Of a stretch of DNA of 64,000 nt, positions 4,346 through 54,189 are shown piece after piece. The DNA is taken from assembly GCA_964647025.1 (NCBI GenBank), contig CAZYFU010000001.1, positions 293 through 64,292 on the forward strand. The letters run 5' to 3'. Source of the stretch: an uncultured Myxococcales bacterium. GTDB taxonomy: Bacteria > Myxococcota_A > Polyangia > Fen-1088. How positions within the stretch are numbered: the first letter of the stretch is position 1; each line of letters starts with the position of its first letter. The translations under genes and the position numbers were made by a program. The notes under the pieces were generated by a model. That model saw nothing but the letters and a program-made list of their open reading frames with translations. It was not told the origin of the DNA and did not search any database.

Positions 4346-4349
4346 GCCA

Positions 4350-4376: not shown

Positions 4377-4377
4377 A

Positions 4378-13922: not shown

Positions 13923-14854
13923 CAGAAATACCCTTCCTGCTTCTTGGCTTCCATCGACGAAGGCTGATCGTGATCGATCACGCGGCCTTCCCGTTCGGAC
14001 GTGCGCGCCGCCGCGATCTCGTGGATGACCTCGGCCAGCGTCTCGGCGTTCGACTCCACCGCGCCGGTAAGCGGATAGCAGCCAAGCGTACGGAACCGAA
14101 CCTTCTTCATCATCGGCGTCTCACCGGGCCGCAGCGGCATTCGTTCGTCGTCGACCATGATGAGCGCGCCGTCCCGCTCCACCACCGGACGGACCTTGCT
14201 GTAGTAGAGCGGCACGATGGGGACCTTTTCGAGGTAGAGATACTGCCAGATGTCGAGCTCGGTCCAGTTCGACAGGGGGAACACGCGGATCGATTCGCCG
14301 CGCTGCTTGCGCGCGTTGTACAGGCGCCACAGCTCGGGGCGCTGGTTCTTCGGATCCCAGCGGTGCAGCGAGGTGCGGAAGGAGAATACGCGCTCCTTCG
14401 CCCTGGACTTTTCCTCGTCCCTGCGGGCACCGCCGAAGGCCGCGTCGAAGCCGTACTTGTCGAGCGCCTGCTTGAGGCCCTGCGTCTTCCAGATGTCGGT
14501 GTGGACCGCCGAGCCGTGGGTGAACGGGTTGATGTTCTTCTCCACCGCCTCGGGATTCGTGTAGACCAGCAGCTCCATCCCGGATTCCTTGGCCATGCGC
14601 TCGCGCATCACGTACATGTCGCGGAACTTCCAGGTCGTGTCCACGTGCAGGAGGGGAAACGGCGGGACTGCCGGGTAGAAGGCCTTGCGGGCCAGGTGCA
14701 GCATGACCGAGCTGTCTTTCCCGATCGAGTAGAGCATCACGGGCTTCTCAGCCTCGGCGATGACCTCGCGGATGATGTGGATACTCTCGGCTTCGAGGCG
14801 CTGGAGATGGCTGAGTGTGCTCATAGGTGGCTCGATGGTGAAATTCTCTACCAC
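13922..14854 (-). CDS. cysD: sulfate adenylyltransferase subunit 2
   Basis: 310 aa. PAPS-reductase-like fold with the SIGKDS PP-loop motif. Strong CysD conservation throughout. Confidence 0.9.
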
Positions 14855-14887
14855 ACAAATCGGACCATGACTGTCGGAGATGTGGTG

Positions 14888-15697: not shown

Positions 15698-15709
15698 GTG
15701 CTTCCTTCC

Positions 15710-17206
15710 TCAGAACGTCGAGCGAAGCTCGACGTAACCTGCGCTCAGTTGTTGATCGACCAGACCGAAAAGCGTGCCGCTGGGGCCGGCCAGGACCTCA
15801 CCACCGACGTACGCGATCATGGAATCCGACAGCCTGTAGCCGACCTTCGGCGCCGCCATCCATTCCTTGGTCGAGAAGTTGTACATGCCCAGGGCCGACA
15901 GAGACAGGGTATCGTGCGCGGTCAACCACTCGACGCGCGCCGTGGCCAAGTGCTGGATCTTCTCGGTCTGCGAGAACAGCATCTGATTCGTCTTGCGAAG
16001 GTTCGCGTCCACGGCGCCGCCCGCGGTCCGCGAGTCGACCTGATCCGGCTTGGTCAGCATGGCGGTCGTCAGGCTGGTGTCGGCCGGACCTTTCTCCTTG
16101 GCCCAGTCGAAGGTATAGCGACCGAGGTATTGCACGATGAGGCTCACCGAGCCGAAGTTGTGGTCGCCGCCGATGGCGTACTGCAAGTCGGGTTTGGGCG
16201 CGTGCATCTGGCTTTGGTAGTCGTACGGCCTGCGGTACGCCACCTCGCCGCGAAGCGCGAGCAGGTCACCAATCGCGGTGGAGAAGTCGAAGCCCACCAC
16301 CTGCTGCTTGTATGCGGTCCGGGCGATGATGACGCTCGGGTTGGTTTCGCTGATGGTCACGCTGGAACGGGTCAACCCCGGCATGGGGGCGTATCCGTGC
16401 AGATAGGAGACCGACATCTCGACCGACGGCAGCTCCAGGTGGACACGTCCGGCCAGAAGGCCCTTGTCCAGCTCGGGCTTCGGATACTTCGGGTCGCCAT
16501 AGCTGACGTACTGCGGGAGATTGACGGGAGGCAGCTCGTTCGCGACATAGGACGGAAGCCACACGCCCTCGATGCGCACGGGCGACAGCCGCAGGACCGC
16601 GCGCGCGCCCACGTTGCCCATCCGACGGTCGTCCTCGATGGGCGAGCGCATGCGGAAGTTGACCGGGGTCAGGTTGTTGGTGGGATTGAGCAAGTCCGCC
16701 CGACCCCAGACGATAATCTGCTTGCCGAGGCGAAGATCCAGCGGCCCCAGGTACGTATTCACGTACGCCTCGCGCACGTCGACGGTCGTGCTCTGCTGGG
16801 ACTCGCCGAGCATGCCGTAGCGCAGGCGAACCTCCGCAAACGCATCGCCGAGGTCGTCCTTCTTCGCCCTGGCAATCAGAGCCAGCTCGCCGTATCCGGC
16901 CTTCAGGTTCGCCTGATCGCCGCCAGGGACCTTTCCCACGAAGACATCGCCACGGGTGTAACCGCTGATCTGCAGAGAGGACGAGCCGCCCGTCGGAGCC
17001 GCGGTCTCCGATGGAGTCTGGCTGGCGGAGACGCTCTGCTCGAAAAGGCCGCTTCCTGACTCGGACGAGGCCGGCTCGGCCTGGGCGCCGCCGTCGGAGC
17101 CCCCCGCCTCTGGCGAAGCGGTGGGCGTCTCGGCACGGGCCCCGCCCGCGAAGACGACCGACCCGCAACCGAGCAGGAGTGCCAGCTTCTTCGATCCGCT
17201 AAACAT
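15710..17206 (-). CDS. DUF1302-like outer-membrane beta-barrel protein
   Basis: The internal Met MFSGSKKLALLLGCGSVVFAGGARA is a signal peptide. Block LRLGKQIIVWGRADLLNPTN resembles the DUF1302 signature. Beta-strand-rich. Start 17206 was calculated from the ORF-track frame. Confidence 0.55.
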   Translation of the reverse strand: MFSGSKKLALLLGCGSVVFAGGARAETPTASPEAGGSDGGAQAEPASSESGSGLFEQSVSASQTPSETAAPTGGSSSLQISGYTRGDVFVGKVPGGDQANLKAGYGELALIARAKKDDLGDAFAEVRLRYGMLGESQQSTTVDVREAYVNTYLGPLDLRLGKQIIVWGRADLLNPTNNLTPVNFRMRSPIEDDRRMGNVGARAVLRLSPVRIEGVWLPSYVANELPPVNLPQYVSYGDPKYPKPELDKGLLAGRVHLELPSVEMSVSYLHGYAPMPGLTRSSVTISETNPSVIIARTAYKQQVVGFDFSTAIGDLLALRGEVAYRRPYDYQSQMHAPKPDLQYAIGGDHNFGSVSLIVQYLGRYTFDWAKEKGPADTSLTTAMLTKPDQVDSRTAGGAVDANLRKTNQMLFSQTEKIQHLATARVEWLTAHDTLSLSALGMYNFSTKEWMAAPKVGYRLSDSMIAYVGGEVLAGPSGTLFGLVDQQLSAGYVELRSTF

Positions 17207-18275
17207 GGTCACCGGGGTTCCTTTCCGTCCACTCGCCGGTGGCCAACACGATCGAGAAGCCCGCAGCCGCGCTGCCAAGGGCGATTCTGTCGCCCGGTCG
17301 GACGCTGCGCTCTTCGAGCAACTGATGGTAGGTCACGCCGACGCTCGCGCTGGCCGTGTTCCCGTACTTCGAGTGGGTGTACACGCCTTTCACCGGATCC
17401 ACGCCGGTGTCTTGCAGAATCTTGCGGACCATGATCTCGCTCGGTTGGTGGAAGACGTAGTGGTCGATGTCGCTCGGCTTGAGATTGATGGCGGCCAAGC
17501 GCTCCTTGATCCAAGGCGGAATCATCTTAGCCAAACGCATGAGCTCGACAGAAGACGAAAAAAGTGTTCCGTCGATAGGAACCTGGCACAGGTCCCAATG
17601 ATCCGGCGCCGTGATGGTATCGATGCTGGTGAGCCGAATGCCGCCGCCCGGGAACGGCCGCTTCCGCAACAGCACGCAGGTTGCTGCATTACCGACGGTC
17701 AGAGCGGCGGACTTCATGTGCAGGTCGCGCACCTTCTGGATGTCGTAGCTGAGGAAATGCCGGGATAGCTCCGACGTGCACACCAGGGCGGCCCGGTAGC
17801 TCGGCCGCATGTTGAGGTAGGCCGTAGCGACCTGGATCGCCTCCAGGTGCCCGACGCAGGCAGAGGTCACGTCGAACGCATGGGTCCGACGCAATCCCAG
17901 CTTGGCCGCGACCTCCATGGCCGTCGCCGGCTCGAAGTACTGGCGGGCAATGCCGCCGCAGATCACCAGGTCGACCTCTTCCAGGGAGGCGTCGTTTCGG
18001 CGCAAGCACTCCTTGGCGGCGGCCACCGCGAAGTCGGCCACGCGACCGCTGTCGTCGACCTCCAGGTAGCGCTGCTGGGTCTTGCACAAGCTGAAGATGT
18101 GCTCGATGGCAGACGCCAACCGCGCGAAGTCCTTGTCCGTGCCTTTGAACTTGGCCCGGACACGGCGAATGGTTTCGGCGTTATCGACTAGGGCGCCTGG
18201 GAAACAGACGCCCGGTTTGGAAAGATACAGCTCGGGTAGACTCACCAGCAAACTCCCTGGTTCGACATCATCCAA
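17199..18275 (-). CDS. 3-oxoacyl-ACP synthase III (KAS III/FabH-like)
   Basis: TTG start. Catalytic triad contexts are present: SACVG (Cys), VFHQPS (His), GNTASAS (Asn). 358 aa. Confidence 0.8.
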   Translation of the reverse strand: MDDVEPGSLLVSLPELYLSKPGVCFPGALVDNAETIRRVRAKFKGTDKDFARLASAIEHIFSLCKTQQRYLEVDDSGRVADFAVAAAKECLRRNDASLEEVDLVICGGIARQYFEPATAMEVAAKLGLRRTHAFDVTSACVGHLEAIQVATAYLNMRPSYRAALVCTSELSRHFLSYDIQKVRDLHMKSAALTVGNAATCVLLRKRPFPGGGIRLTSIDTITAPDHWDLCQVPIDGTLFSSSVELMRLAKMIPPWIKERLAAINLKPSDIDHYVFHQPSEIMVRKILQDTGVDPVKGVYTHSKYGNTASASVGVTYHQLLEERSVRPGDRIALGSAAAGFSIVLATGEWTERNPGDHV

Positions 18276-18310
18276 CCCTTTCTAGCCGTTTCAAAGCGCC
18301 AACAACATCG

Positions 18311-19027
18311 TCAGCGATTGTTTTCAAAGAGGGACCGCAGCAAGGGATCGCGAAAATCGCTGCCGGGCGCGAAGTAGCTGCACAGAACGACCTTACGCAC
18401 GCCAAGGTCCTGGTCCGTGCGGTCGACCAGCACCTGGCCGGCCCCGGACACGACCACGGTGCGAACCATGCCAGGCGCGACCTCGTAGATCAACCGGTCA
18501 TGCTTCTCGTACCCGCGCGACTTCAACGCGGCGAACGAATCTGGCAAGCCCTGCATGACCCGTTTTTCCAGACCGGCGTCGATGAGTCCAGCTTTGCGCG
18601 TCTGCTCGAGGTTCTCGCGCACCACCCCAAGCCACCGATCGAGCGAGACGTCGCGCTTGAACTTCATCTGCACGACCCCGCGCTCCGCACCGATTACGGC
18701 ATTGGTGAGCTGATTTGCGAGACCGTCCGAGAACGTCTTTCCGGTCGCCAAGCCGGACAGCTTCGTCTGCGTCGGCTTGTCGATCCGCACCTCGATGGTC
18801 GCCACGTTGATCCTGAGGAAGGTCTTCTGCAGGAGCATATGCATGTACGCATACGCCCCTTGGGCAAGCTCCTTCGACTCCAGCGAGGGAAGATTCGTTT
18901 CGGCCGTCGCGACCAGAGCGCAGCTGGCCAGCAGCCCGGACGCAGCAGCAGCCCAGCGTAGTTTCGTGAGTGACATCGATACTCCCAGTTGCCGATCGTG
19001 AGGTGCGCGGCTCAGGTTCTGCCTCAA
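18311..19027 (-). CDS. secreted hypothetical protein (possible chalcone-isomerase-like fold)
   Basis: Signal peptide (MSLTKLRWAAAASGLLASCALVATA) after a short leader. The start overlaps the upstream gene's stop by 4 bp. The fold assignment is speculative. Confidence 0.45.
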   Translation of the reverse strand: MRQNLSRAPHDRQLGVSMSLTKLRWAAAASGLLASCALVATAETNLPSLESKELAQGAYAYMHMLLQKTFLRINVATIEVRIDKPTQTKLSGLATGKTFSDGLANQLTNAVIGAERGVVQMKFKRDVSLDRWLGVVRENLEQTRKAGLIDAGLEKRVMQGLPDSFAALKSRGYEKHDRLIYEVAPGMVRTVVVSGAGQVLVDRTDQDLGVRKVVLCSYFAPGSDFRDPLLRSLFENNR

Positions 19028-20499
19028 TTTCGATAGAGAACGTCGATGGCCAGGATATGCGATGCCGCGCTGTAACTACCGGCGTTGACCGCCGGCGAGG
19101 GCTGGCCGAGGAAATTGGCGTTGCATTCAGAGGTGCTGGTGTAGGGCGCCTTGCAGGGGCTGCCTGGTACCTGCTGGTAGCCACGGGCGTTCTTCTCGGA
19201 GACATAGACGCTGGGCTGGACTCGCAGGTGGTAGGCCAGGGCCAGCTCCAGCGGGCCGAGGAACATCGAAGCCCCGAGGCCGCCGCCCACTTGGGGACCG
19301 CTCGGAAAATCCACGCTGGCGTAGGCCGGATCCGCAACGGCGGTTTCGTAGTAGCCGCCCGCCCGCAGGGTCAGAAGCGACGGAAGCACGGCATAGTCGC
19401 CGCCCAAGCGCACGGCGATGGTGTCCTTCCAATTCTTGTTGATGTTGATGGTCCCGAGTTCGATGCGGTCGCTCTGGCTCTTGGCCTGCAGACCGCGCGT
19501 ATCGATGGTGAACTTGTTCACACGCGACCAGGTCTGGTACTCGACGTTGAGCTCGAGGTCGAAGAGCTCGCGACTGCCCACGAGGCCTCGGTAACGAACG
19601 CCCGCGCGGAAGAGCATGGGCAGGGGCATGGTGACCTGCACGTCGTTGGCCAGGCTGTTGTTGCGCAGCAGGCTCACGCGCCCGATCTCATCGCCGATGG
19701 GGGTCACGTTCAGGTTGGCGTTGGCGACGATGTTCGCCGGCACCACTTGGCCTGACAGCGCGAACTCGAGGAAGGGGGTTGGCCTCACCCACGTGCCAAG
19801 CACGGCGTTGAACGTGAAGAGCGACGAGCCCCGCATGTCGGCCACGATGTCGTAGCCGCTGGACACGGGATTGGCCGGCTGGGAGAAGACCGTGCCGTCG
19901 ATGACCAACGAGTAGCGCAATCTCGGCATGTGGATCCACTGGAGGCTGGCACCAATCCCGAACACGTCTTGGTAGTTCCAAGCCACGCTGCCCACGTACT
20001 TCAGGAAGATGACCTCGCGACTGACCATCTGGTAGCGTTGCCCACCACCTTCGGGGAAGGCCAGCTTCCCGATGCCAGGAGGCGCATACACGGCCGCGCC
20101 GAAGGTGAAGTCGCGCAGGCCGAGCTTCGACGCGACCCCGAGAAAGGGATCGAGCGCCTGCCAGGGCTGCCCGTTGTTTACGGTATTGAAGGATACGACC
20201 TTGGGCTGGCCGGTGTTCTGGTCGATGTCGCCCCAGTCCTTCGTGGTGTCCCGCGCGTACGAGTATGCGTTGCGAGAGAAGATGTTCCCGAGCTGAAACG
20301 TCGTGCCGGTCGCCTTGGCCAGCCCCGCCGGGTTGATGTCCACCGCGGTCACGTCGTTCGTGGAGGCGACCACCGCCCCGCCCCGCCCGGCCGCTCGCGC
20401 ACCCAGGGTGCCCGAGTAGTAGCCGCCCTCCGCCAGCGCGGGGAGAGCGAAATGAAACACACCCGCGAGGGCGACAGCGCCAACAGCGATCTTCTTCAT
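19024..20499 (-). CDS. FadL/TodX-family outer-membrane hydrophobic-compound channel
   Basis: Signal peptide MKKIAVGAVALAGVFHFALPALA. The N-terminal hatch-domain pattern G..G.agAa......d.....NPAGLA is conserved. About 490 aa, a size consistent with a beta-barrel. Confidence 0.65.
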   Translation of the reverse strand: MKKIAVGAVALAGVFHFALPALAEGGYYSGTLGARAAGRGGAVVASTNDVTAVDINPAGLAKATGTTFQLGNIFSRNAYSYARDTTKDWGDIDQNTGQPKVVSFNTVNNGQPWQALDPFLGVASKLGLRDFTFGAAVYAPPGIGKLAFPEGGGQRYQMVSREVIFLKYVGSVAWNYQDVFGIGASLQWIHMPRLRYSLVIDGTVFSQPANPVSSGYDIVADMRGSSLFTFNAVLGTWVRPTPFLEFALSGQVVPANIVANANLNVTPIGDEIGRVSLLRNNSLANDVQVTMPLPMLFRAGVRYRGLVGSRELFDLELNVEYQTWSRVNKFTIDTRGLQAKSQSDRIELGTININKNWKDTIAVRLGGDYAVLPSLLTLRAGGYYETAVADPAYASVDFPSGPQVGGGLGASMFLGPLELALAYHLRVQPSVYVSEKNARGYQQVPGSPCKAPYTSTSECNANFLGQPSPAVNAGSYSAASHILAIDVLYRN

Positions 20500-20541
20500 G
20501 CGAAAAACCGAGGGCAAAGGGGTGACTCCGATGTCCGGCTG

Positions 20542-21561
20542 CTACGATGGATTCAAGACCACCACGGCAATTGGGGTGGGCACTTGGCACCTCGTGCAGC
20601 GCAAGGCGACCGCCCAGATCCCGTTGCTCTTGGAGAATCCGGTGAACTTGCCGTCTAACGAGGAGCTGGCCGAGGTGAGGTCGGCGCTCTTGACGGGATT
20701 GTCATCGGACTGACTGATCGCCAGCTCGTAGAGTGGCGAAGCCAATCCTGCCACGTCGAGGTCGAGGAACCTCTCCTCCAACTGGCTGACCGTGAGGTCC
20801 GGGTAGAAACCAAGCTGCAGCCTGTCGACGTCGGCAAAGAGAAACTCATTCTGCAGGCCGTCCTTCGTGAGCTTGCTCCAATCGAGCACGTACGGCCCCC
20901 CCGCGGCCACGTCTACTGTGGATGCGGTAAGGTCGGCGGTGAAGTCGAGAATGCTGCAGCTGTCAGTCTGCGCCTTTACCTCAGTGACGCTCGAGCCGTC
21001 GTTTGGTTCAAGAAAAAGCATGGTCCGGCTGCCGCTGCCCAGCTTCGTGCCCCGAGCAAAGAGAAGCATGTAGGTCTTCGTCGACGACACCGTATAGTCG
21101 GTCGTCGGGTTGACCACCGTCGTATCGAGCGAGAACTGCGAAAGCTTGGCGCATGTCGAAGACGCCGTCGTCCTGAACGTACGGGAAATGACCTTCGAGC
21201 TGTCGAGTTGACCGGCGGTGAGCTGCTGTTCGATCTTCGATTCGTCGAGGTTGTTGATCTGCAGGAAGGTCACGCTGTTGATGTCGGAGGACGAGGCATC
21301 GTGACAGAGAAAGTCTTTCGTGATTCCCGTCCAGCAAATGTCCAAGTCGGCTTGCGGCTTGGTCTGAATGCGCGGAATGCTGAGGGCGCTCGTGGCCCTG
21401 TAATTGTTCTGGTCGGTGATGACGATGTTGCCCGTCGAGTCGCTGCTCGTCGCGTTACTGCCACAAGCGGCCGAGAGCAATAGCGAGCCAGCCAACACCG
21501 TCGCCCACCCGCCTCGTCGAGACGAAATCGAGAACCTGCAACCGAGTTTCATGAGGGGCAT
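20542..21561 (-). CDS. lipoprotein, hypothetical (paralog of 24514..25620)
   Basis: Lipobox LLLSAACGS. S/T/N-rich. The C-terminus ALRCTRCQVPTPIAVVVLNPS aligns with the paralog's LALQCGGCRNPSPLYLTIFKPCN. Shared LDWSKLTKDG / LDWGKMTKTS block. Confidence 0.6.
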   Translation of the reverse strand: MPLMKLGCRFSISSRRGGWATVLAGSLLLSAACGSNATSSDSTGNIVITDQNNYRATSALSIPRIQTKPQADLDICWTGITKDFLCHDASSSDINSVTFLQINNLDESKIEQQLTAGQLDSSKVISRTFRTTASSTCAKLSQFSLDTTVVNPTTDYTVSSTKTYMLLFARGTKLGSGSRTMLFLEPNDGSSVTEVKAQTDSCSILDFTADLTASTVDVAAGGPYVLDWSKLTKDGLQNEFLFADVDRLQLGFYPDLTVSQLEERFLDLDVAGLASPLYELAISQSDDNPVKSADLTSASSSLDGKFTGFSKSNGIWAVALRCTRCQVPTPIAVVVLNPS

Positions 21562-33135: not shown

Positions 33136-34548
33136 CTAGACGGCGATCCGCTCCGACTCGACCAGCTTGGCCTTCTCGACGATAGCGGCCCGGAGGCGCG
33201 CCAGCTCGCGCACCATGAACACCGCGCCGACTACCGCGAAGGGCAGATCCGCCAGCGGCGCCGCAAGGTACATGCCGTAGAACCCGAACAAGTGCGGGAG
33301 CCCGAGGAAGAGCGGAATGGCGAGGACCTGGCGACCGAGCAACAGGATCGAGGCCTTGCGCGGCTCGTGCACGCTCAGGAAGTAATGGGCCATGCCTCCC
33401 GCCAGGCTGAACAGGGAGATGGGAACCACGAACCACGGGAGCCCGCGAGCGACCATCTCGATGAGCTCGGGGTCGGACTTGCTGAACAGCCCGGCCACGG
33501 GCCCAGGAAAGGCCGCGATCATGACCGAGAACAGCACTCCCATCCCGGCGCAGCTGAGCAAGACCCGAATCAGGATGGCGCGGACCCGGTCGAGGCGGTC
33601 GGCACCTTTGTTGAATCCAACGAGCGGCATCATCGCCTGCATCACGCCCAGCGAGGGATAGATGAGCAACATGGCGACCGTGTTGAGCACCCCGAGCGTG
33701 GCCAAGCCGCGACTGCCCGCCTGGCTGGCGGCGCCGTGATTCGCGGCCAGGAAGACCGCGGTGGCCAGAATCTGCATGAGCCCGAAGGGCGCGCCCAGCG
33801 TGATGATGGCGCGAGCGGTGGCGCGGTCGGAGCGCAGCAAGTGCCCGCGAATGGCGAGCACGCTATGCCGACTCTGCACGAACGCCACGACCAACGCGCA
33901 GCCGACGACCTGGGACACCGCTGTCGCCAGCGCGGTGCCGATCACCCCCCAGTGCAGGACGAAGACCGCGACCAGCGCAAGGCACACGTTCAGCACGTTG
34001 CTACCCAGCATGAAGCCGAGACCGAGCATGGGGCGCCCCTGCACGCGCAGGATGTTGCCCATCGCGATGAGCACGATCACGAAGATCTGTCCGACCGCCA
34101 GGACGCGCGCGAAGGGAACCGCCATGGGCAGGAGCCGGACCTCGCACCCGCAAGCCAAGAGCAAAGGCCGCGTGAACGCGAACGTGACCAGCGCGAGCAC
34201 GACGCCGAAAATCAGCGCGAGACGCACGCTTTGCCCGAGCACACGCTCGGCGCCGTCGCGATCCTTCTGTCCCAGCAGAACCGAGATCCGATTGCCGGTG
34301 CCCGTGCCGAGCAGCAGCGCGGCCGCCATCCCGACGATGGATAGCGGAAATGCGGCGGTGACGGCGGCCATCGCGTCGGTACCGACGCCCCGACCCACGA
34401 TAATCCGATCCGCGAACTGGTAGAGGGCGTTCGCGAGGAAGCCAGCGATGGCGGGCAGCGAATAGCGGGCGAGCAACCGACCGACTGGCTGTTCGCCCAT
34501 GTGTCGTACTTGTTCCATAGGACTGCGAGTGGCTAGCACGCCTGCCAA
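33136..34548 (-). CDS. MATE-family efflux transporter
   Basis: 12 TM segments with MATE-like N-terminal conservation (LPAIAGFLANALYQFADRIIVGR). The true start is possibly an internal Met around 34500. Confidence 0.75.
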   Translation of the reverse strand: MAGVLATRSPMEQVRHMGEQPVGRLLARYSLPAIAGFLANALYQFADRIIVGRGVGTDAMAAVTAAFPLSIVGMAAALLLGTGTGNRISVLLGQKDRDGAERVLGQSVRLALIFGVVLALVTFAFTRPLLLACGCEVRLLPMAVPFARVLAVGQIFVIVLIAMGNILRVQGRPMLGLGFMLGSNVLNVCLALVAVFVLHWGVIGTALATAVSQVVGCALVVAFVQSRHSVLAIRGHLLRSDRATARAIITLGAPFGLMQILATAVFLAANHGAASQAGSRGLATLGVLNTVAMLLIYPSLGVMQAMMPLVGFNKGADRLDRVRAILIRVLLSCAGMGVLFSVMIAAFPGPVAGLFSKSDPELIEMVARGLPWFVVPISLFSLAGGMAHYFLSVHEPRKASILLLGRQVLAIPLFLGLPHLFGFYGMYLAAPLADLPFAVVGAVFMVRELARLRAAIVEKAKLVESERIAV

Positions 34549-34768
34549 AGATTCCGCAAGCCTGGCTCGACGGTTCGTTACGGCAAGAGCCCCCCGAAGA
34601 CGTAGCCTCCAGGCAGCCCGGCGCGGCTTTGCGGGAACACCTCGTTACCATCTCGAACGATCGGCACGACTCGAAGGCGGCGCCCGACGCCGTTCCCCTG
34701 GCGCTTTCTCTTTCCACGCCAGCCCACTTGGCCCCTCGGCGCCGCCTGAACAAGCGACAATCCCATGA

Positions 34769-36034
34769 TTGTCCTGTCCCGCTCCGAGTACGGTGGCATA
34801 TTTGCATGGTGACTGGGTTCAGGCATTCATGACTATCCAGGCCAACACATCGCCTCGTGAGACCACGGACCGCGGCAGACTCCACGACGAGATCCTGCAC
34901 ACCGAGGAACGCTTCCGTCTGCTCGTGAATAGCGTGCAGGACTACGCGATCTTCATGCTCGACGCCGAGGGCATCGTGGCGACATGGAACAGTGGCGCCG
35001 AGCGGATCAAGGGCTACAAGGCAGAAGAGATCATCGGTCGCCACTTCTCGCTGTTTCGGACGCCCGAGGAGGCCCGCTCGGGGGTTTGCGAGCGCGAGCT
35101 CGCCGTTGCCGCGCGCGACGGCAAGCTGGAGGAGGAAGGCTGGCGCCTCCGCAAGGACGGCTCCCGGTTCTGGGCCAACGTGGTGCTTACCGCGATCCGC
35201 GGGCGTGACGGCGAGCTCATCGGTTTCGCGAAGGTGACGCGAGATCTGACTCAACGACAGCTGCTCGACAGCGAGCGGCTGCAACGTGCCCGGGCGGAGG
35301 AGGCGGTGCGCTTGCGGGACGAGTTCCTCCTCATTGCCGCACACGAGCTGCGGACCCCGTTGACCTCCCTGCGCCTCGATCTCTACGGCATCGAGCAGGA
35401 GGTCTCCCGGCCGCAATCGACCGATTCCTCCAAGGCCCCCGCGAAGATCGCCAAGAAGGTCGAACGGGCCGTACGGAACTCGGAGCGGCTGGCCGCCCTC
35501 ATCGACTCGCTGCTCAACGTGTCCCGCTTGGCGCACGGCAAGCTCGTCCTCAAGCCCGTTCGGCTCGACTTGGTCCAGGTCGTCGCACACTCGGTCGAGG
35601 GCATTCGAAGCCAGGCGGCGAAGGCCGGCTGCGAGATCGTCTCCTCGTCGGCGGAGCAGCTTCTCGGGGTCTGGGATCCGCTGCGTATGGAACAGGTCTT
35701 CATGAACCTTCTGTCCAATGCCCTGAAGTACGGCGCCGGTTCACCTGTGGAGATTCGCGTCTTCGCCGAAGGCGAGGACGCCGCCGTGGAGATCAGTGAC
35801 CGCGGCCCCGGCATTCCCGAGACCGACCTCGATCGGATCTTCGATCGATTCGAGAGAGGGTCTGCGGCAGGCAGCCAAGGCGGCCTCGGCCTCGGCTTGT
35901 TCATCTCGCGCGAGATCATACGCGCCCACGCAGGCTCCATTCGCGCCTCCAACCGCGCAGGCGGGGGAGCGACGTTCATGGTTCGGTTGCCCATGCAGAG
36001 ACACGGCGTGCCGCCCACACTCGGGGAACCGTGA
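34769..36034 (+). CDS. PAS-domain sensor histidine kinase
   Basis: PAS domain (VATWNSGAERIKGY). HisKA H-box HELRTPLTSL. HATPase_c G-boxes (DRGPGIP, GLGLGL). Confidence 0.85.
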   Translation: MSCPAPSTVAYLHGDWVQAFMTIQANTSPRETTDRGRLHDEILHTEERFRLLVNSVQDYAIFMLDAEGIVATWNSGAERIKGYKAEEIIGRHFSLFRTPEEARSGVCERELAVAARDGKLEEEGWRLRKDGSRFWANVVLTAIRGRDGELIGFAKVTRDLTQRQLLDSERLQRARAEEAVRLRDEFLLIAAHELRTPLTSLRLDLYGIEQEVSRPQSTDSSKAPAKIAKKVERAVRNSERLAALIDSLLNVSRLAHGKLVLKPVRLDLVQVVAHSVEGIRSQAAKAGCEIVSSSAEQLLGVWDPLRMEQVFMNLLSNALKYGAGSPVEIRVFAEGEDAAVEISDRGPGIPETDLDRIFDRFERGSAAGSQGGLGLGLFISREIIRAHAGSIRASNRAGGGATFMVRLPMQRHGVPPTLGEP

Positions 36035-36435
36035 TGTCGGCACCGCGCCAGGCCGATCGGGCTGTGTTGGTCGTTGATGACGACGACGACATCCGCGAGA
36101 GCCTGATAGGGTTCCTGGAGGCGGAGGGCTATTGTCCGATCGGCGCGCCCAACGGAAAACGAGCGCTCGAGCTGCTCGCCGCCCTCGAATCACCCCCGCG
36201 CCTCATCGTCCTGGATCTGATGATGCCGGTCATGGATGGTCGCGTCTTCAGAAAGGAACAGCAGCGTTCCCCGACGCTGGCAAAGATACCGGTCGTGCTC
36301 ATCTCTGCTTATGCGCCCGATCCTGCCGAGGTTGCCCGGGAGCTTCGAATCCCCGACTTCTTGTCGAAGCCCGTCGATCCGGTCGTGTTGCTGCAGTTGA
36401 TTGGCGACAGATTCGACAAGGCTGGCTGCTCGTAG
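36031..36435 (+). CDS. single-domain response regulator (CheY-like receiver)
   Basis: VLVVDDDDDIRE ... LDLMMPVMDG ... K in the SKP block. Its start overlaps the kinase stop by 4 bp. Confidence 0.85.
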   Translation: MMSAPRQADRAVLVVDDDDDIRESLIGFLEAEGYCPIGAPNGKRALELLAALESPPRLIVLDLMMPVMDGRVFRKEQQRSPTLAKIPVVLISAYAPDPAEVARELRIPDFLSKPVDPVVLLQLIGDRFDKAGCS

Positions 36436-36438
36436 CCG

Positions 36439-36834
36439 CTATGGCGAGGCCGTCGACGCCGGAGCCGAAACGCCGGCGTCGATCGGAGGCGAGATTCCGT
36501 GCTGGGCTTCGGCCGCGCCCCTTCGCAGCTCGGCCGCCGATGCGTCCACGGATCGGCTGGCCTTGGCCAGGGCCTTGATACCCAGGACCACCCCCAAGGC
36601 GAGAACGGCGCCAAATACCGCCAGCGCGATGCTCGCGCCTCGTTGGTGAGGGACCTTGTCGAAATCGCCGGTGCGCAATCTGCGCGCGCGCAGCTCGTCT
36701 TCGGCCAAATCGGGGACGTCTTGCCACGCCGAGGCTTCGTGCTTTTCCCCCTCACTGAAGAAGCGCAGGGTCGTGTGGCCAAACGGTTGGCTCCTTCGCC
36801 TGGGTGGCTCGACGCGCTTGTTGTCGAATGGCAT
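36439..36834 (-). CDS. hypothetical membrane protein
   Basis: 131 aa with one TM helix (IALAVFGAVLALGVVLGI). GC3-rich codon usage. No family assigned. Confidence 0.35.
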   Translation of the reverse strand: MPFDNKRVEPPRRRSQPFGHTTLRFFSEGEKHEASAWQDVPDLAEDELRARRLRTGDFDKVPHQRGASIALAVFGAVLALGVVLGIKALAKASRSVDASAAELRRGAAEAQHGISPPIDAGVSAPASTASP

Positions 36835-36861
36835 GCGACTACTTCTCCCCTCGCCGACCCG

Positions 36862-37164
36862 TCACGGATTCAGTTGTCGCTTGGCCATCTCCTCCATCGC
36901 GTGGGCCAACTTCGCGTCCAAAGACGAAATGCCCCCGAGGTCGTGCGTGGAGAGCGCGATGCGCACCATGTTCCAACTGTTGGACCAGTCCGGGTGGTGG
37001 CCCATCTCCTGTGCAACCAAGGCCACACTCGTCATGAAGCTGAAGGCCGCGATGAAGTTCATGAACTGGTACTCGCGGCACAGCTTCCCACCGTCCAGGC
37101 GCCAATTGGGCAGCTTGGCCAAGACGCCAGACAACTCCGCTTCGCTCAGCTTGTTTGCAGTCAT
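36862..37164 (-). CDS. phhB: 4a-hydroxytetrahydrobiopterin dehydratase (pterin-4-alpha-carbinolamine dehydratase)
   Basis: C-terminal 100 aa (MTANKLSEAELSGVLAKLPNWRL ... HHPDWSNSWN ... STHD) matches the PCD family. The upstream part of the 177-aa ORF is not PCD-like. Confidence 0.7.
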   Translation of the reverse strand: MTANKLSEAELSGVLAKLPNWRLDGGKLCREYQFMNFIAAFSFMTSVALVAQEMGHHPDWSNSWNMVRIALSTHDLGGISSLDAKLAHAMEEMAKRQLNP

Positions 37165-37276
37165 GTCCGGAACGAGGGGCAAGTCCAATGCCATCGGGTT
37201 CTCTTGCCCGCGATCGGCGCGAATACCGCCGTCATCGGCACGGCCGAGCCCAAGCCTTCGCTTCAGCATCGTAGGG

Positions 37277-37822
37277 GGCATGTCAAGCGCGGCGAGGCCG
37301 AGGGAGGTGGCGGTAACCGGATTGGGCGTGATCAGCGCGCCTGGCTCGACCCCGGCGCAGTACTGGGAACGGGTGCGAGGTGCCACCACGAGCATGCAGA
37401 CCGTGGCGCCCGCAGCGGCGGATTCGTCAATCGCGCCGTATCAGGCCGCGGTCGACGATCTCGTGTTGAATCAGGAGCTCGACAGGTTACGCATTCGTGC
37501 GCCCGGGCGCGTGGTTCAGCTGGCCGCCGCGCTCCGTGACGCCGGCTGCGAGCCGTCGCAGGTCGGGTACGTCAACGCCCACGGCACCGCGACGAGAGAG
37601 AACGACCTGGCCGAGGCCAAGGCCATGCATCGGGTATTCGGCGAGCGCCAACAACAGCCGCCCATCTCGTCGATCAAGCCGGTCACGGGGCGCACGCTTG
37701 GCGCATCGGGTGCCCTGGAAGCGGTCGCCATCATCAAGGCACTGGAGGCCGGCATCATGCCGCCCAATGCGAATCTGTCAGCGCCCGACCCGGCCTGTGC
37801 TGTCCATGCCCTGCGCGAGCCT
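37277..37822 (+). pseudogene. beta-ketoacyl synthase (KAS I/II-type) remnant with internal deletion
   Basis: KS N-terminus (REVAVTGLGVISAPG) is joined directly to the KS C-terminal roughly 110 aa (GYVNAHGTATRENDLAEAKA...SSIKPVTGRTLGASGA). The central roughly 250 aa including the active-site Cys are absent. The frame then degenerates. Confidence 0.6.
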
Positions 37823-37824
37823 TC

Positions 37825-38043
37825 GTGCTGCTCGAATCCACGCGCCTCCGAGAGGACCTGGGGCTCGATTCGTTCGCCGCCGTGGAGTTGGTCTTCGAAG
37901 TGGAGGACCTGTTCGACGTCCGCATTCCGCAGGCCACCGCGATGACCTTCCAGACGGTCGCGGACGTGATCTCCTACCTGTCCGTCGAGCTGGCGCCGCC
38001 GCGCCCGAGTGTCCCCCTTCCGAGCGGTGCCGGTGCTCCCTGA
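37825..38043 (+). pseudogene. acyl carrier protein remnant (N-terminally truncated)
   Basis: The LGLDSFAAVEL phosphopantetheine-site motif lies only 16 aa from a GTG start, so helix I is missing. It is in a different frame from the KS remnant. Confidence 0.5.
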
Positions 38044-38760
38044 CCACGAGGTCCTCGTCCTCGGCGGGGGGCCCGCCGGCAGCATGGCCGCGCTCACCCT
38101 CGCCAGCGCTGGTGTTGCGTGCCGGCTGGTCGAACGCAACGACGAGATCCCGCCCAGGGCCTGCGGCGACTTCCTGTCGGCCGAGGCGGTGCAGCGCTTG
38201 CGAGTGCTGGGGTTCCCCTGGGCCGAGGCTCAGGCGAGCAGCGTGCGCGCGATCCAGCTTCAGGCCCAGGGGCGTGCGGTGACGGCGAAGCTTCCGTTCG
38301 AAGGGCGCACCGTGGGCCGGGGATTTCTCGATGCTTGGCTCGGGCAAGTACGGACGCGCACGCTGATCCTGGCGTGCGGCAAGCACGGGCTCGGGCCGTT
38401 CCACGAACGACGCGTCGACCGCGGCCAGATCCTCGTGGGGTGGAAGATGAGCTTCACTCACCTCGGTCGCGCGGTGTCGCGGGCGCTCGACGAAACACTC
38501 TGCCTCTTCGCCTTCGCCGGTGGGTATGGAGGCATCGTCCGAAGAGACCCCGCTCCTTGCGCTGCTTCTGGCCGAGTCCGAGCCCACGTGGGATCGACCG
38601 AAGACCGTCGCCAACCTGCCCTACGGTTACTGCGAGGACCGCAGCCAGCCCGGGCTATTTCCCGTCGGCGACCAGTTTGCGGTCTTGCCCTCGTTCACCG
38701 GCACGGGCGTCTCTTTCGCCATGGCCAGCGGCGTAGCGGCGGCGAGAGCCATCCTTCGCT
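38009..38760 (+). pseudogene. FAD-dependent oxidoreductase (geranylgeranyl-reductase/flavin monooxygenase-like), frameshifted
   Basis: The N-terminal GxGxxG (VLVLGGGPAGSMAA) is in frame A. The C-terminal GD..AV.PSFTGTGVSFAM.SG motif is in frame B starting around 38520. A frameshift lies between 38500 and 38590. Confidence 0.55.
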
Positions 38761-38849
38761 CACCGGGTCCCGAGGCGGCGAGCCGCTACTTCCGCGATGG
38801 CCAGCGGATGGCCCGGCCCGTGCTGCGCAGGGCGCTGCCGCTTCACCGG

Positions 38850-39230
38850 CTGCTGCAAGACCCTGGCTTCGTGCGATTGGGGATGCACCTCGTCGACTGG
38901 GTGCCGAGCTTGATCTCGGCCCTTCCCCCCGTGTTCTCGGCGCTGCTCGACTCGCTTGCTGTCGACCGGGGCGACATTCGACATTGGGCCGTTCATCCCG
39001 GCGGCCCGGCCATCTTGGACCAAGCAAAGGCAGCGCTGGGAATCGATGAAGGTGCCGTGGCGACGGCCCGACAGCTCCTCGCCGAGCACGGCAACATGAG
39101 CTCGGCCACGATTTGGTTTCTCCTCGACCGTATTCGCCGGCAAGCACAGACGGGGCTGGTCTACGCCTGCGGCTTCGGTCCCGGACTGACGCTGGAGTCC
39201 GCGGTGCTCTCACATCGAGGCGTGGGCTGA
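38850..39230 (+). pseudogene. type III polyketide synthase (chalcone/stilbene synthase family) C-terminal fragment, fused in frame to the oxidoreductase remnant
   Basis: WAVHPGGPAILDQ ... GNMSSATIWFLLD ... GFGPGLTLESAVL aligns with the last roughly 130 aa of type III PKS. The N-terminal roughly 250 aa including the catalytic Cys are absent. Confidence 0.6.
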
Positions 39231-39951
39231 TGCTCGCCTTCGAAGAGCGTGCCTTCCTGCCCGAAGCGATGGACGCGCACGATGCCGACCGACGCAAGCT
39301 CGAGCGCAGCTACCAGCAGCTCGCCACCATCAATCGCTACCTCTCTCGCATGCGTGGGCTGCTTTGGCGCAACGTGGTTGCGCCGGCACGGCGCTCGGGC
39401 AACTCGCCCACGGTGCTGGAGGTGGACTGCGGCGGTGGCGACGTTCTCGGCTGGCTCGAGTTGGCAGGACGGAAGGCGGGCGTCCGGCTGCGCCTGCTGG
39501 GGATCGATCCCGATCCAAGGCGGTCGCACACGCGCGCACGACCGTCGCGGCATTTCCCGAGGTGACGGTGCAGCAGGGCGACATCACCGACCTCGGGGGC
39601 GATGGCATGGTCGCGGACTACGTGTTCTGCAATCACGTCCTTCATCACATCCCGCCGCCTGCGATCGCAGCCGCCCTGCGTTCGCTGCGACGGGCTGCCA
39701 AACGCCGCCTGCTGGTGAACGACCTCGAACGCTCCGTCGCCGCCTACGCCGCGTTCTCGGTGTTGGCCCGGGTCGCCTTTCACGACAGCTTCGTCCGTGA
39801 TGACGGGCGACTATCCATTCGCAAGGGATTTCGAGTTTCCGAGCTTTGGGCCGCGTGCAGGCAGGCGGAGTTCCCGCGCAACTCGCGGGTCTTTCGCCTT
39901 CCGCCGTGGCGGGTGGTGATCGCGGCCCCGGGCGGCTACGGGGATGACTGA
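39230..39951 (+). pseudogene. class I SAM-dependent methyltransferase, frameshifted near 39525
   Basis: Motif I VLEVDCGGGDVLGWL is in frame 1, which ends ...LGIDPDPR. The continuation ...AVAHARTTVAAFPEVTVQQGDITD... and motifs II/III (DYVFCNHVLHHIP) are in frame 2. Confidence 0.6.
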
Positions 39952-40018
39952 GGGTCAGGGCAGATCTCGGCCCTCGGCAGACTGCCGCACGACCTGCCCG
40001 CACCGCAGGAAACCGCGG

Positions 40019-40237
40019 TCAGACGTCTTCGTGAGCGGACGCCGCCAACATCGCCCCCAGCGGCGCCCCCACGCTGGCGCCCAGGACAGCCATCACGACG
40101 GCGACGACATCACCTTGAGCAGCGCCCAGCACGCCACAAATCGCCGCCGCCGTCAGCCCGCCTGCGGCGGTGCCCAAGGGGTGGTTGGATATCCGCTCCG
40201 CCAGACTGTGCTTCTTCAGGTTGATGCTATTTGCCAT
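40019..40237 (-). CDS. small glycine-zipper membrane protein
   Basis: Start at MANSINLKK. Two Gly/Ala-zipper TM segments (GTAAGGLTAAAICGVLGAAQG; AVLGASVGAPLGAMLAA). Confidence 0.45.
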   Translation of the reverse strand: MANSINLKKHSLAERISNHPLGTAAGGLTAAAICGVLGAAQGDVVAVVMAVLGASVGAPLGAMLAASAHEDV

Positions 40238-40426
40238 CACAGACCTCCATCCATCCAAGCAAAGCAACCGAACGACCCGACTTCCTGATGCACGAGCCGA
40301 CCTACCGCCGGCCGACTCACAACCCTGTCAATTCCAATACCCCCGACGCAGCCCGGATGCAAACCATTCCGCTTCGTGCCGAGCAAACACGAATCGCTGC
40401 GCGGCTTTCTGCTATTCTCCTTCGTC

Positions 40427-41398
40427 ATGCATAGCAGCTCGAAAGCCCGCGCGTTCCTTGGACTGTTCGTCTCGGCGGTGATGACGACCGCGGTCGCCTG
40501 TGGCAGCGACAGTGAGCAGACCGGCCCCGCCGACGCGAGCATTGGTGTGCCCGACGCCCCCATGAACGACCGCGACGCGCATGTCTCCGAGGCGCACGCC
40601 GCCGTCGATCTTTCGGAGGCCGGGCCAGCAGGGATCCCCGTGGCGGGATACTGCACCAGCAAGCCAGCGATTCCCACGGTCACGAGCATCTCGGGCACCT
40701 GGGTGATCCGCGCCGTCGCCACGCAACTGGTGAGCGTCCTCGGAGGCACGCTGCGCCCGCAGACCCTGTTCTACATGGTCACCACCATGTCCCAGGCGGG
40801 CGACAAGGTCACGGCCAGCGGCTTCTACTGCGATCGCGCGCAAATCGATCAACCGGGTTCGATGGTCGCCGTGATCATGCCCGACAAGTGGGCGCACACC
40901 GAGAAGGTGGTGAATCGCTCGGGCACGCTCACGGTGGGCGCGGACCACGTTCCGCTGCTCCAGTTCGCCCCGTTGGTCGAGCTGGCAGGCGCCGTGCCCG
41001 GGCCCGACACCGATGCAGTGCCCACGACCCTCGACGATCCGCGCGTGATTGACGAGGACCAAGACGGCCATCCCGGCATCACGATCAACGTCACCGGCCT
41101 GGCCACCGGCAGCCTCTATGCCGTGCAACGGCAGGTGACCGCCATCGCGGCGATCCCCGTGGCGACGGATCGTTTCGAGGGCACCTTGACCTTCAGCTCT
41201 GAACAGAAGGTCCTCGACAGCAACCCGGCTGGACTCACCGTCATATATGCCACGGCGCAAGCCACCACCGACAGCACCCCATGTGCCAGCAACTTCAGCA
41301 TGGTCAAGGTCGCGGAGTCAGCCACTTCGATCGACGCAGGCCCGGCGGTCAGCTGCGCGTGGGTACGCGACAACGAGGGCGTCCTCTTTCCCAAGTAG
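40427..41398 (+). CDS. lipoprotein, hypothetical
   Basis: Internal Met followed by signal plus lipobox (AVMTTAVACGS). No family assigned. Confidence 0.5.
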   Translation: MHSSSKARAFLGLFVSAVMTTAVACGSDSEQTGPADASIGVPDAPMNDRDAHVSEAHAAVDLSEAGPAGIPVAGYCTSKPAIPTVTSISGTWVIRAVATQLVSVLGGTLRPQTLFYMVTTMSQAGDKVTASGFYCDRAQIDQPGSMVAVIMPDKWAHTEKVVNRSGTLTVGADHVPLLQFAPLVELAGAVPGPDTDAVPTTLDDPRVIDEDQDGHPGITINVTGLATGSLYAVQRQVTAIAAIPVATDRFEGTLTFSSEQKVLDSNPAGLTVIYATAQATTDSTPCASNFSMVKVAESATSIDAGPAVSCAWVRDNEGVLFPK

Positions 41399-41400: not shown

Positions 41401-42882
41401 CTATCTGGCGATACGAAAGGTCGCGCCTGCCCCGACCATGTATCCGGTGCTCTTCCAGCCTGGATATCCCGGATTGTTGGTCTGCAGGCCCGCCGTCCCT
41501 TCCGCCGCGAGGCCCGTGCGGAGGTCGATCGCCGTATCTGGGTGTTCGTCCACAACCGGATTGGCGGCGTTCGGGTCCTTGGTGACGTCCCGTGGAAGGA
41601 AGAGGGAGCCAAACACGCTGATGCCGGCTTCAAGGTCCTTGCCAAGAAACCTGACCGGCGCCTCGATGCCCAGGCTGGCGAGTAGGCGGGCGTTGTCGAC
41701 ATAGTTGGTGCGGCCGGTCTGGGCCGGCACGGGCGACGGGACGTAGCCGAGGTCCATGGTGATGTGTCGCTCCCGCCACAGGAAACCTCCCCCTACCGCG
41801 TAGCTGATGGTGTTGGTCCAGCTATCGAGGGGCTGAGCGCCCTGACGATTGCGATAGTCGGTCCACTGCTGCCACAGAAGCTGGCCCCCGATCTCCCAGG
41901 ATGCCCGGCCGTCCTCGCGAAGCGCCCCCCGATAGCTGCCGCCCAGCCCCACCCGCAGGGGGAGGCTGCCTTGCGTGAAGGTGTAGGTCTGCTTCACGTA
42001 GCTCTGCCCTTCGGGGTAACTGTAGTTCCAGAAACGCAGATCGTTCTCGCCCTGGGTCTCGTTCGCCGCCGGCAAGTGCACCGTCGCCACCACCGAGCTC
42101 GACGGGCGCGGTCGCACGGTGACCCCGAAATAGGGGTTGAATCGACTGTCGGTGTGAATGTCCTGCGCGATGAAGATCTTGGTTTGGTTCGCGGCGTTCG
42201 GCAGGTAGGCGGTCATCTTGGTTTGCGTGAAGATCGAAATGTCGATGCCCGCGCCCAGCGAGATCCACTCGGCGAGCTGCGAGCCCACCGCGAAGCTGAT
42301 GGACGTGGCCGCCAAGCGATCGCCGAGCAGCTCGAAGTGCAGTTGGTTCGAGAAGTACTGCTCGCGCTCGTCGGGCCAGAAGCCCTTCTGGTCGACGAAG
42401 GCCCGCACGGGCAGAAGCGCATGGAAGCCGAAGACCAAGGCCCTGCCCGCCAGCGGGCGAACCATCCCGAGGGACGCGTAGGTGACGCTCTGGTCGGCAT
42501 TGGTATTCGCGCGGCGGTTGGGCAGCTGCGAGGTAGGCAGTGGCCGCAAGTCGTCCGCGTTCGCCCCCGGGATCAGCGTGGAGTAGATGCTGTCCGGCAC
42601 GTCGACGCCCTCTGGCCGTTCCCTGAGGCGAATCTTGCCTTGCACGCCGACGGCGAAGAGCCCGATCTCTAGCTTCGGCATGGCTTCGGGCAGTAGCGAA
42701 GGGTTGAAGTACGTGACCGCCGAGCCGCGCGAGAGAACACGAGCCGTGAGCTGATTTCCGCCGGTCGTGGCGCCCAAGGTCTCGAGCACGCTGGACGCGC
42801 GCGCGACAGCGGCCCAACCTGGTGCGAGCGCGAGACAGGCCAGCAAGGCAAGGCGGCGGACTGAACGGCGGGACGTATGCAT
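41401..42882 (-). CDS. secreted outer-membrane-type hypothetical protein
   Basis: Signal peptide (RRLALLACLALAPGWAAVARA). Beta-rich, with an aromatic C-terminal residue pattern typical of OM barrels. Confidence 0.5.
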   Translation of the reverse strand: MHTSRRSVRRLALLACLALAPGWAAVARASSVLETLGATTGGNQLTARVLSRGSAVTYFNPSLLPEAMPKLEIGLFAVGVQGKIRLRERPEGVDVPDSIYSTLIPGANADDLRPLPTSQLPNRRANTNADQSVTYASLGMVRPLAGRALVFGFHALLPVRAFVDQKGFWPDEREQYFSNQLHFELLGDRLAATSISFAVGSQLAEWISLGAGIDISIFTQTKMTAYLPNAANQTKIFIAQDIHTDSRFNPYFGVTVRPRPSSSVVATVHLPAANETQGENDLRFWNYSYPEGQSYVKQTYTFTQGSLPLRVGLGGSYRGALREDGRASWEIGGQLLWQQWTDYRNRQGAQPLDSWTNTISYAVGGGFLWRERHITMDLGYVPSPVPAQTGRTNYVDNARLLASLGIEAPVRFLGKDLEAGISVFGSLFLPRDVTKDPNAANPVVDEHPDTAIDLRTGLAAEGTAGLQTNNPGYPGWKSTGYMVGAGATFRIAR

Positions 42883-53817: not shown

Positions 53818-54189
53818 TCACGCCCTGCTTGGATGCGGCGAATTCGCGCGATTTGGCACCGTCCGAAAAGGCCGAACGGCCCGTCCCATCATATTTACTG
53901 GGCCGCTCCCATCAAATAGCCTGGCTCGCCGAAGACCGCCGTTCAGGGCGAGACGGGGTCGATGATCGCGAACAGCGATCCCGTCGCGAGCAAGACGTAC
54001 TCGACCAGATTGCGCATGATTCTCCCAAGTATGGATTGCCTTCGGCGCTCGTCCTGGAACGCCACACCAGCAAATGTCACGGGCTCATCCGTGGTCCTCG
54101 GGCCGGGCTCGGCGAAGCGCGCGCAGCAGGGTACGCGTTTTCCAGCGTTCCAATGCCGAATTGCGCTTTTCCCCTTCTCGCTGGATATG

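Follow-up and report, generated by a model that had tools for sequence, protein, structure and literature searches.

Are the five broken genes lying side by side at positions 37280-39951 (+ strand) in a 64,000-nucleotide stretch of DNA from an uncultured Myxococcales bacterium (contig CAZYFU010000001.1 of assembly GCA_964647025.1; the whole stretch is hereafter "the window") the remains of a biosynthetic operon that has been lost, or do they belong to a working operon whose breaks are errors of sequencing or assembly? All five remnants are on the plus strand and, although each is truncated or frameshifted, they can be recognised, in this order, as a FabF-type ketosynthase (KS), an acyl carrier protein (ACP), a flavoprotein oxidoreductase (FAD), a type III polyketide synthase (PKS) and a methyltransferase dependent on S-adenosylmethionine (SAM), hereafter MT. 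A preliminary description had reported such a run of broken genes with their family motifs preserved, and both Pfam and tblastn recover all five at the positions given here; it favoured a pathway in the process of being lost, with assembly errors in a functional cluster as the alternative. We hold with high confidence that the region is the non-functional relic of a five-gene KS-ACP-FAD-type III PKS-MT operon, from which no product is to be expected; as such, it is an ordinary, well-resolved case of biosynthetic-cluster decay.

Our comparison set consisted of metagenomic contigs, designated here by L numbers. L003 carries the operon intact (KS 421 amino acids (aa), ACP 102, FAD 381, PKS 375, MT 262), preceded by genes for a response regulator, a hypothetical protein and a pterin-4a-carbinolamine dehydratase (PCD) and followed by genes of 72 aa (s72), 308 aa (p308) and 481 aa (omp). 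Its neighbourhood is that of the window: histidine kinase, response regulator, hypothetical gene, PCD (-), operon, s72 (-), p308 and omp (-). L032 and L033 hold a complete operon between the same flanks and are slightly closer to the window, with 72-77% nucleotide identity. The preliminary description had proposed an alignment to intact orthologous clusters as a check; this alignment resolves every break into a deletion, that is, into sequence present in the orthologs and absent from the window. The operon region, 4612 bp long in L003, is reduced to 2672 bp. In all, the damage amounts to five deletions (~630, 177, 99, 95 and 860-900 bp) and a 1-bp deletion in the MT gene, to which are added substitutions at two key residues, a KS catalytic His replaced by Arg and a Gly of the MT SAM motif replaced by Asp. 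Lesions were mapped by tblastn, protein alignments and the closer L032/L033 DNA matches; a global MAFFT alignment of the window with the L003 DNA put the KS deletion wrongly at the 5' end and broke up the FAD/PKS deletion into numerous small gaps. A frame plot of GC content at third codon positions (GC3) still gives a plus-strand coding signal over 37.28-39.95 kb, with switches of coding frame at about 37.8, 37.96, 38.5, 39.2 and 39.5 kb.

The KS relic falls into two parts. The first (37280-37516, ATG at 37280) corresponds to ortholog residues ~1-84 (by tblastn, L003 KS residues 9-94 match 37301-37546) and the second (37532-37825) to residues ~293-391 (75% identical to L003 KS residues 292-391); they are joined at 37517-37531 by an in-frame deletion of ~630 bp, located by protein alignment with the orthologs, that takes out residues ~85-292, including the active-site Cys (SACASS), the very region that had been reported missing from this gene. 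At the junction, the window reads RVV and then QLAAALRDAG, where orthologs read RVVRMAAL, some 210 residues, and AAMRAALGDAG; the two breakpoints lie in stretches that resemble one another ("AAL..DAG"). Of the two catalytic His residues, the first survives; the second, present in 10/10 orthologs, is Arg in the window (codon 37691-37693, KPVTGRTLG). Pfam finds Ketoacyl-synt_C alone (profile positions 31-118 of 119, E=2e-27) and no match to the N-terminal ketoacyl-synt domain in this relic, which therefore lacks both the Cys-His-His triad and the two-domain architecture of a FabF/KAS II-type beta-ketoacyl synthase.

A single deletion of 177 bp (junction 37823-37833; L003 positions 3330-3506 are absent after window position 37833) removes both the last ~28 KS codons with the stop codon and the ACP start with its first ~32 codons, which encode helix I. 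KS homology stops at 37825 and ACP homology begins at 37834 in a different frame. The ACP relic (37834-38043) begins at ortholog residue 33 and runs on to the end, with 76% identity to the L003 protein. Its PP-binding match is confined to profile positions 21-67 of 67 (E=7e-9), and the phosphopantetheine Ser survives (GLDSF, codon 37870-37872). With profile positions 1-20 and the start codon deleted, a complete four-helix carrier protein is no longer encoded, in agreement with the missing helix I noted earlier.

The FAD gene is damaged three times. Its N-terminal part (38045-38536) keeps the dinucleotide motif GGGPAG and matches Pfam FAD_binding_3 at the N-terminus only (E=1e-8); it is interrupted at ~38341-38350 by an in-frame deletion of 99 bp (33 aa; L003 positions 4030-4039 and 4065-4153 are missing), where the alignment reads FLDAWLGQ followed by VRTRTLILACGKHG. 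This deletion was not part of the preliminary description. The frame switch reported near 38.5 kb proves to be a second deletion, of 95 bp (junction 38537-38549, frame 2 to frame 3; L003 positions 4315-4320 and 4338-4426 absent), across which GGYGGI is followed, in the other frame, by ETPLLALLLAESEP, and the GC3 maximum switches at ~38500. The C-terminal part (38544-38906, ortholog residues ~239-355) carries the motifs VGDQFA and TGTGVSFA, is 62% identical to L003 FAD residues 239-361 and gives a continuous 73% nucleotide match to L032/L033 over 38550-38906. With the 33-aa deletion, the frameshifting 95-bp deletion and the loss of the C-terminal ~26 aa, no uninterrupted class A flavoprotein reading frame is left.

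The third lesion is shared with the PKS gene. A deletion of ~860-900 bp (junction 38901-38910; gap from 1983 to 2909 in L033 coordinates) takes the FAD C-terminus together with the first ~263 PKS residues, catalytic Cys included; without a change of frame, PKS residue ~264 now follows directly on FAD residue ~355. At the DNA level, FAD homology stops at 38906 and PKS homology restarts at 38933. The aligned junction reads LVDWVP followed by SLISALPPVFSALLDS, and "VP" is encoded at both ortholog breakpoints. What remains of the PKS (38907-39230) is 65% identical to L003 PKS residues 249-371 and matches Chal_sti_synt_C at profile positions 27-147 of 151 (E=9e-20); the in-frame fusion to the reductase remnant is as first described, and the size is ~108 aa rather than the ~130 then estimated. 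His (HPGG) and Asn (GNMSS) of the triad are kept and the Cys region (TASCTGF in orthologs) is deleted, while the intact orthologs carry all three residues; neither the full length of a two-domain type III PKS (~350-400 aa) nor its Cys-His-Asn triad is thus preserved. Its TGA stop (39228-39230) overlaps the MT ATG by 1 nt, as in L003.

The MT pseudogene (39230-39951) is full length save at three points, and tblastn returns it as two segments in different frames; Pfam finds Methyltransf_25 (E=4e-7) in a frame other than that of the MT N-terminus. The reported change of frame near 39.5 kb is a 1-bp deletion at 39514-39519, beside a short G run (AAGG instead of AAGGG). In SAM motif I, Gly is replaced by Asp at codon 39425-39427 (LEVDCGGGD); Gly is found in 9/9 orthologs. 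The third point, codon 39571-39573, is CAG in the window and is taken up below with the other alleles.

Could all this be a functional cluster seen through assembly or sequencing errors? Outside the relic region, the window consists of long high-GC3 open reading frames (ORFs) without interruption, so the damage is local and not the symptom of a generally poor assembly. Two contigs of independent Logan assemblies, from other sequencing runs, carry the same locus: L001 (SRR24540823, 5.8 kb) aligns to window 34417-40256 at 99.62% identity with a single 1-bp gap, and L002 (SRR8925774, 3.3 kb) aligns to 37920-41226 at 99.85% identity without any gap. All five large-deletion junctions are reproduced in L001, as are 3/3 of those spanned by L002, which starts at 37920. 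Since the window, L001 and L002 differ by single-nucleotide polymorphisms (SNPs), they represent three separate haplotypes, and the recurrence of the junctions leads us to reject the error reading for every lesion but, in principle, the single-base one, which stands beside a G run, is absent from L001 and could be a consensus error. Deletions of 95 to ~900 bp are too large for indel noise; moreover, the 1-bp deletion is found again in L002, each assembly has at least one MT null lesion and the other genes of the window are intact. A functional cluster broken by errors is therefore highly improbable. The breaks are gene loss, not sequencing error, and the five deletions are fixed in the sampled population; homology to intact syntenic orthologs, disabling lesions and the recurrence of these lesions in data from two other runs together characterise the locus as a set of pseudogenes.

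The MT alleles show the last gene at a different stage. The window allele has Gly-to-Asp and the frameshift, with no TAG; the L002 allele has Gly-to-Asp, the 1-bp deletion and TAG at codon 39571-39573; the L001 allele keeps the motif I Gly (GGC) and, thanks to a frame-restoring extra G after 39518, shows an open frame of 240 codons broken only by the same TAG, at codon 115. Every one of the three thus has at least one null lesion: the window has neither the open frame nor the intact motif I of a class I SAM-dependent MT, and L001 has the canonical motif together with the nonsense codon. According to the ortholog alignment, Gly and the restored frame (D-x-R-A-V-A) are ancestral. As MT lesions differ from strain to strain and the large deletions are common to all, the four upstream genes were destroyed before these strains diverged; the MT gene was inactivated after the divergence, in more than one way, and the data support a loss still under way in the sampled strains. 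The pathway being lost, as first proposed, is indeed what the strain polymorphism shows. At positions 39426, 39518 and 39571, the window, L001 and L002 display three of the four possible lesion combinations, the fourth being the inferred intact ancestor. This pattern implies recombination between 39518 and 39571, a recurrent C-to-T mutation or a mixed-strain consensus; one has to bear in mind that these haplotypes are metagenome consensus sequences, which limits how their history can be read.

Another possibility is that the fragment was broken before it reached this lineage, by horizontal transfer or recombination, and never worked there. Presence at the site is indeed patchy, as ten loci from related uncultured Myxococcales metagenome-assembled genomes (MAGs) have the omp-p308 pair without an adjoining operon or detectable relic. 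However, the relic lies between PCD and s72 in exactly the place and orientation of the intact operons of L003 and L032. Upstream, PCD (36862-37164, -) is intact, 73% identical to its L003 counterpart over 100/100 aa, and the same gene matches Pfam Pterin_4a in L001 and L003; downstream come intact s72 (40019-40267, -) and the synteny anchors p308 (40376-41398, +) and omp (41401-42882, -), all three matched by tblastn to L003 and L032. Divergence of the relic from L003/L032 (59-74% aa identity) is in line with that of the flanking genes (53-73%), and its GC content is the same as that of its surroundings (~66% for the window). No mobile-element-like repeats and no meaningful direct repeats flanking the junctions were found, nor were any Rfam matches in 35-44.5 kb or a second copy of the operon within the window. 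An arrival in the broken state hence seems scarcely credible, and we return to in situ loss of a resident operon, whose timing is not bracketed more tightly because the related MAG loci lack the operon altogether. A scan of 185,579 species-representative genomes with omp gave no relative closer than 69% aa identity; L026, which had appeared as a closer relative (83% in its best segment), was rejected at 69.6% nucleotide identity.

What the operon does where it is whole can be approached from its components and from known systems. Besides L003 and L032/L033, the same five-gene order is intact in at least eight more contigs (L018, L019, L020, L021, L023, L027, L028 and L029). The KS of L003 reaches the NCBIfam cut-off for PRK07314, the beta-ketoacyl-ACP synthase II subfamily (396.9 bits vs 387). 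The intact PKS is a genuine type III enzyme; it has the long-chain PKS18 of M. tuberculosis (1ted, E=6.5e-45) among its best solved relatives and a sub-threshold match to the NCBIfam model of DpgA. The flavoprotein is of class A, nearest to geranylgeranyl reductases and halogenases (TIGR02032, 87.1 bits vs a cut-off of 158.8, with weak PDB E-values). The MT matches only an uncharacterised NCBIfam family, below cut-off, and a PDB sequence search returned no solved relative for it.

In relics and intact orthologs alike, the type III PKS, MT and FAD genes are adjacent and co-oriented, which is the gene content of srs/hid-type operons. Among these, hidABC (the hierridin cluster of Cyanobium sp. 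LEGE 06113) and the Planctomycetota operons have the same three enzyme types adjacent on one strand; gene order differs there from the FAD-PKS-MT order seen here, the intact orthologs of our locus have two more genes upstream, for a FabF-type KS and an ACP, and the likeness drawn here is one of gene content. For these type III PKS/MT/FAD oxidoreductase operons, alkylresorcinol formation and methylation have been tied to the genes experimentally (PMC6836626; PMC10896814); the alkylresorcinols are then methylated and hydroxylated or oxidised, for hidABC (PMC6836626) as well as for SrsA/FtpA and the operon of planctomycetes (PMC10896814). In Acetobacteraceae, too, this trio of genes has been noted (PMC8776678). 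In Azotobacter vinelandii, a dedicated fatty-acid-building enzyme feeds the type III PKS in phenolic lipid synthesis (arsABCD; Funa 2006, as cited in PMC8776678), and for Ftp, PMC10896814 cites delivery of the starter to the PKS via an ACP.

Like the systems just named, srsABC of Streptomyces griseus and ftp of Myxococcus xanthus use a type III PKS to make a phenolic lipid that is then methylated and oxidised, from alkylresorcinol to alkylquinone. The srs order is reportedly PKS-MT-hydroxylase, without KS or ACP, and Ftp is said to combine a fatty acyl-AMP ligase with an ACP, not a KS with an ACP. The flavoprotein of our locus also sets it apart, as it scores best to the geranylgeranyl-reductase family, well below the curated cut-off. 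As for arsABCD, with two multidomain type I fatty acid synthases (FAS), two type III PKSs and neither MT nor flavoprotein, it is a poor structural match. The likeness to srsABC/ars clusters put forward in the preliminary description consequently holds for gene content (type III PKS, MT and FAD) and fails for gene order in the case of srsABC, ars being a poor analogue; with its KS and ACP, the operon is a five-gene variant. Our literature search, which did not cover the type III PKS survey of Hug et al. 2019, found no description of this exact KS-ACP-FAD-PKS-MT operon.

From the characterised operons with the same PKS/MT/FAD content and the PKS match to PKS18, a chemistry can be predicted for the intact operon. 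A dedicated acyl starter would be provided or lengthened by the KS and ACP; its condensation with malonyl-CoA by the type III PKS would give an alkylresorcinol or alkylpyrone, and the flavoprotein and MT would tailor the ring; whether the predicted product is a resorcinol or a pyrone is not readable from sequence. In the lineage of the window, the ancestral operon sat between PCD and s72-p308-omp, as it still does in relatives, until serial deletions inactivated it, shrinking it from 4.6 to 2.7 kb and eliminating both catalytic cysteines; the MT gene, now without a pathway, is the last to go, by null alleles that differ from one strain to the next. Mixed-size deletions, intact flanks, SNPs rich in non-synonymous changes and strain-specific null alleles are also features of bacterial pseudogene clusters under deletional bias. 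Slightly uncommon here is the combination of five fixed deletions with a final inactivation that is still polymorphic, in a free-living lineage with a large genome.

Several points weigh against this account and must be set beside it. The evidence base consists of assembled sequences. The product of the intact operon is a prediction by analogy, a long-chain phenolic lipid being the most likely, and the weak family matches of the flavoprotein give it a putative role as either hydroxylase or reductase. Of the strain SNPs, 9 are non-synonymous or nonsense and 3 synonymous in the relics, compared with 3 and 7, respectively, in the intact genes on either side; the direction is that expected for neutrality as opposed to purifying selection, and the contrast, drawn from 22 SNPs, is only marginal (Fisher two-sided p=0.08, one-sided p=0.046). 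In three-taxon comparisons (window, L003 and L033/L032), the amino-acid branch of the window in the relics (0.12-0.18 substitutions per site) does not exceed the branches of the intact lineages in length and is similar to the flanks, so that substitutions alone reveal no relaxed constraint. Finally, two ORFs persist among the remnants: a possible 72-aa ACP fragment with a GTG start at 37825 and, at 38520-39230, a 234-aa fusion whose first half is the FAD C-terminal part and whose remainder is the PKS remnant, for either of which a residual or new function is possible but improbable.

The absence of excess branch length can itself be read in terms of time: the operon was constrained for most of that branch and its loss came recently on that scale, which suggests that the decay is recent. 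Synonymous sites are saturated with respect to the orthologs at about 70% nucleotide identity. Departures at ortholog-invariant columns show no excess in the window (in the KS, 6/62 vs 13/75 in intact L003), a comparison confounded by near-duplicate orthologs and used only to flag the His-to-Arg and Gly-to-Asp substitutions.

The persistent ORFs raise the question of whether some remnants are still used, be it the MT until very recently, the 234-aa fusion or the ACP fragment, in a residual or new role. When the fusion ORF served as a protein query, it matched P0001, a 234-aa protein of practically the same sequence encoded in the Logan assemblies L001 and L002; the next matches, 60-69% identical, are flavoproteins of ~380 aa and type III PKSs of ~372 aa, all of full length. 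The ORF is open in 3/3 assemblies, and the L001 and L002 translations are identical, the window differing from them by a Thr-to-Pro change at 38547. The MT, for its part, is full length and, in L001, has canonical motifs and a single nonsense codon, a near-intact state indicating that it outlasted the other four genes. On the other hand, the fusion has neither the FAD-binding N-terminus nor the PKS Cys and dimer core, the relic SNPs are mostly non-synonymous, the Thr-to-Pro change in the fusion being one of them, and the MT is null in all three alleles. ORFs may also survive by chance, since DNA of 66% GC is poor in stop codons and the window contains many spurious long ORFs. We give continued use of a remnant a small probability, somewhat above that of the two other alternatives, and keep the non-functional relic as our explanation.

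Signs of damage also appear in other contigs of the comparison set. L022:1-1407 (ENA contig OCZT010214880.1) is 98% identical to the intact operon of L023:5433-7352, minus ~511 bp in the type III PKS (residues ~85-256); the junction shows a 4-bp microhomology, the frame is shifted and two more small gaps follow downstream. A second lineage may thus be losing the operon as well, with an assembly artefact possible in so short a contig. In L028:7015-8102, tblastn splits the PKS into residues 5-84 and 60-369, which lie in different frames, perhaps through a frameshift or an error of assembly; L028 is 98.9% identical to L027, in which the PKS is intact. L030:1-4016 has FAD and PKS homologs in an inverted duplicate arrangement, from either a chimeric assembly or a rearranged locus.

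Apart from the operon, three observations concern the rest of the window. Its synteny with L003 (9659-14790) ends after omp in the span compared (42.9-63.2 kb): L003 continues with EBP (sterol-isomerase-like), SDR, DUF1295, glycosyltransferase, DegT, MarC and then CysG, and L032 likewise has EBP after omp; the window has ~20 kb of other genes up to a CysG homolog at 63255. At 53943-54017 (-), in a ~400-bp gap between intact genes, only codons 1-23 of a membrane protein of the MarC family are present, ending in a stop; they are 65% identical to the N-terminus of L003 MarC and may be a second gene relic. An intact KAS III-based lipid pathway had been pointed out elsewhere in the stretch; the ORF (17199-18281, minus strand) is indeed intact, and nothing links it to the decayed operon. 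It belongs to a run at 11982-21561 (-) with LolA-like, DUF1302 and FadL/Toluene_X-type outer-membrane genes, adjoining sulfate-activation genes of the CysN/CysC and CysD/PAPS-reductase types, and this run may be a lipid or sulfolipid export module.

The locus holds a caution for genome mining, as tools keyed on Chal_sti_synt_C or KS_C would report a type III PKS cluster at a site from which no product is possible. It also provides a clean, datable example of a secondary-metabolite operon dismantled in a large-genome soil bacterium, not by one excision but by several medium-sized deletions, at least two of them with breakpoints in similar short peptide motifs, the accessory tailoring gene being lost last, by independent null alleles. 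The intact five-gene operon of L003, L020, L021, L023 and L027 is a candidate for heterologous expression. Beyond this single locus, we put forward a broader, tentative proposal, whose two halves we consider together as possible rather than probable: the intact operon, which many uncultured Myxococcota-like lineages of soil and fen have conserved, would be an uncharacterised phenolic-lipid variant in which priming of the PKS falls to a dedicated KS/ACP pair and not to a type I FAS or a fatty acyl-AMP ligase; and our locus, together with L022, would reflect repeated loss of the operon in natural populations, its last gene caught here in the midst of inactivation as segregating null alleles.

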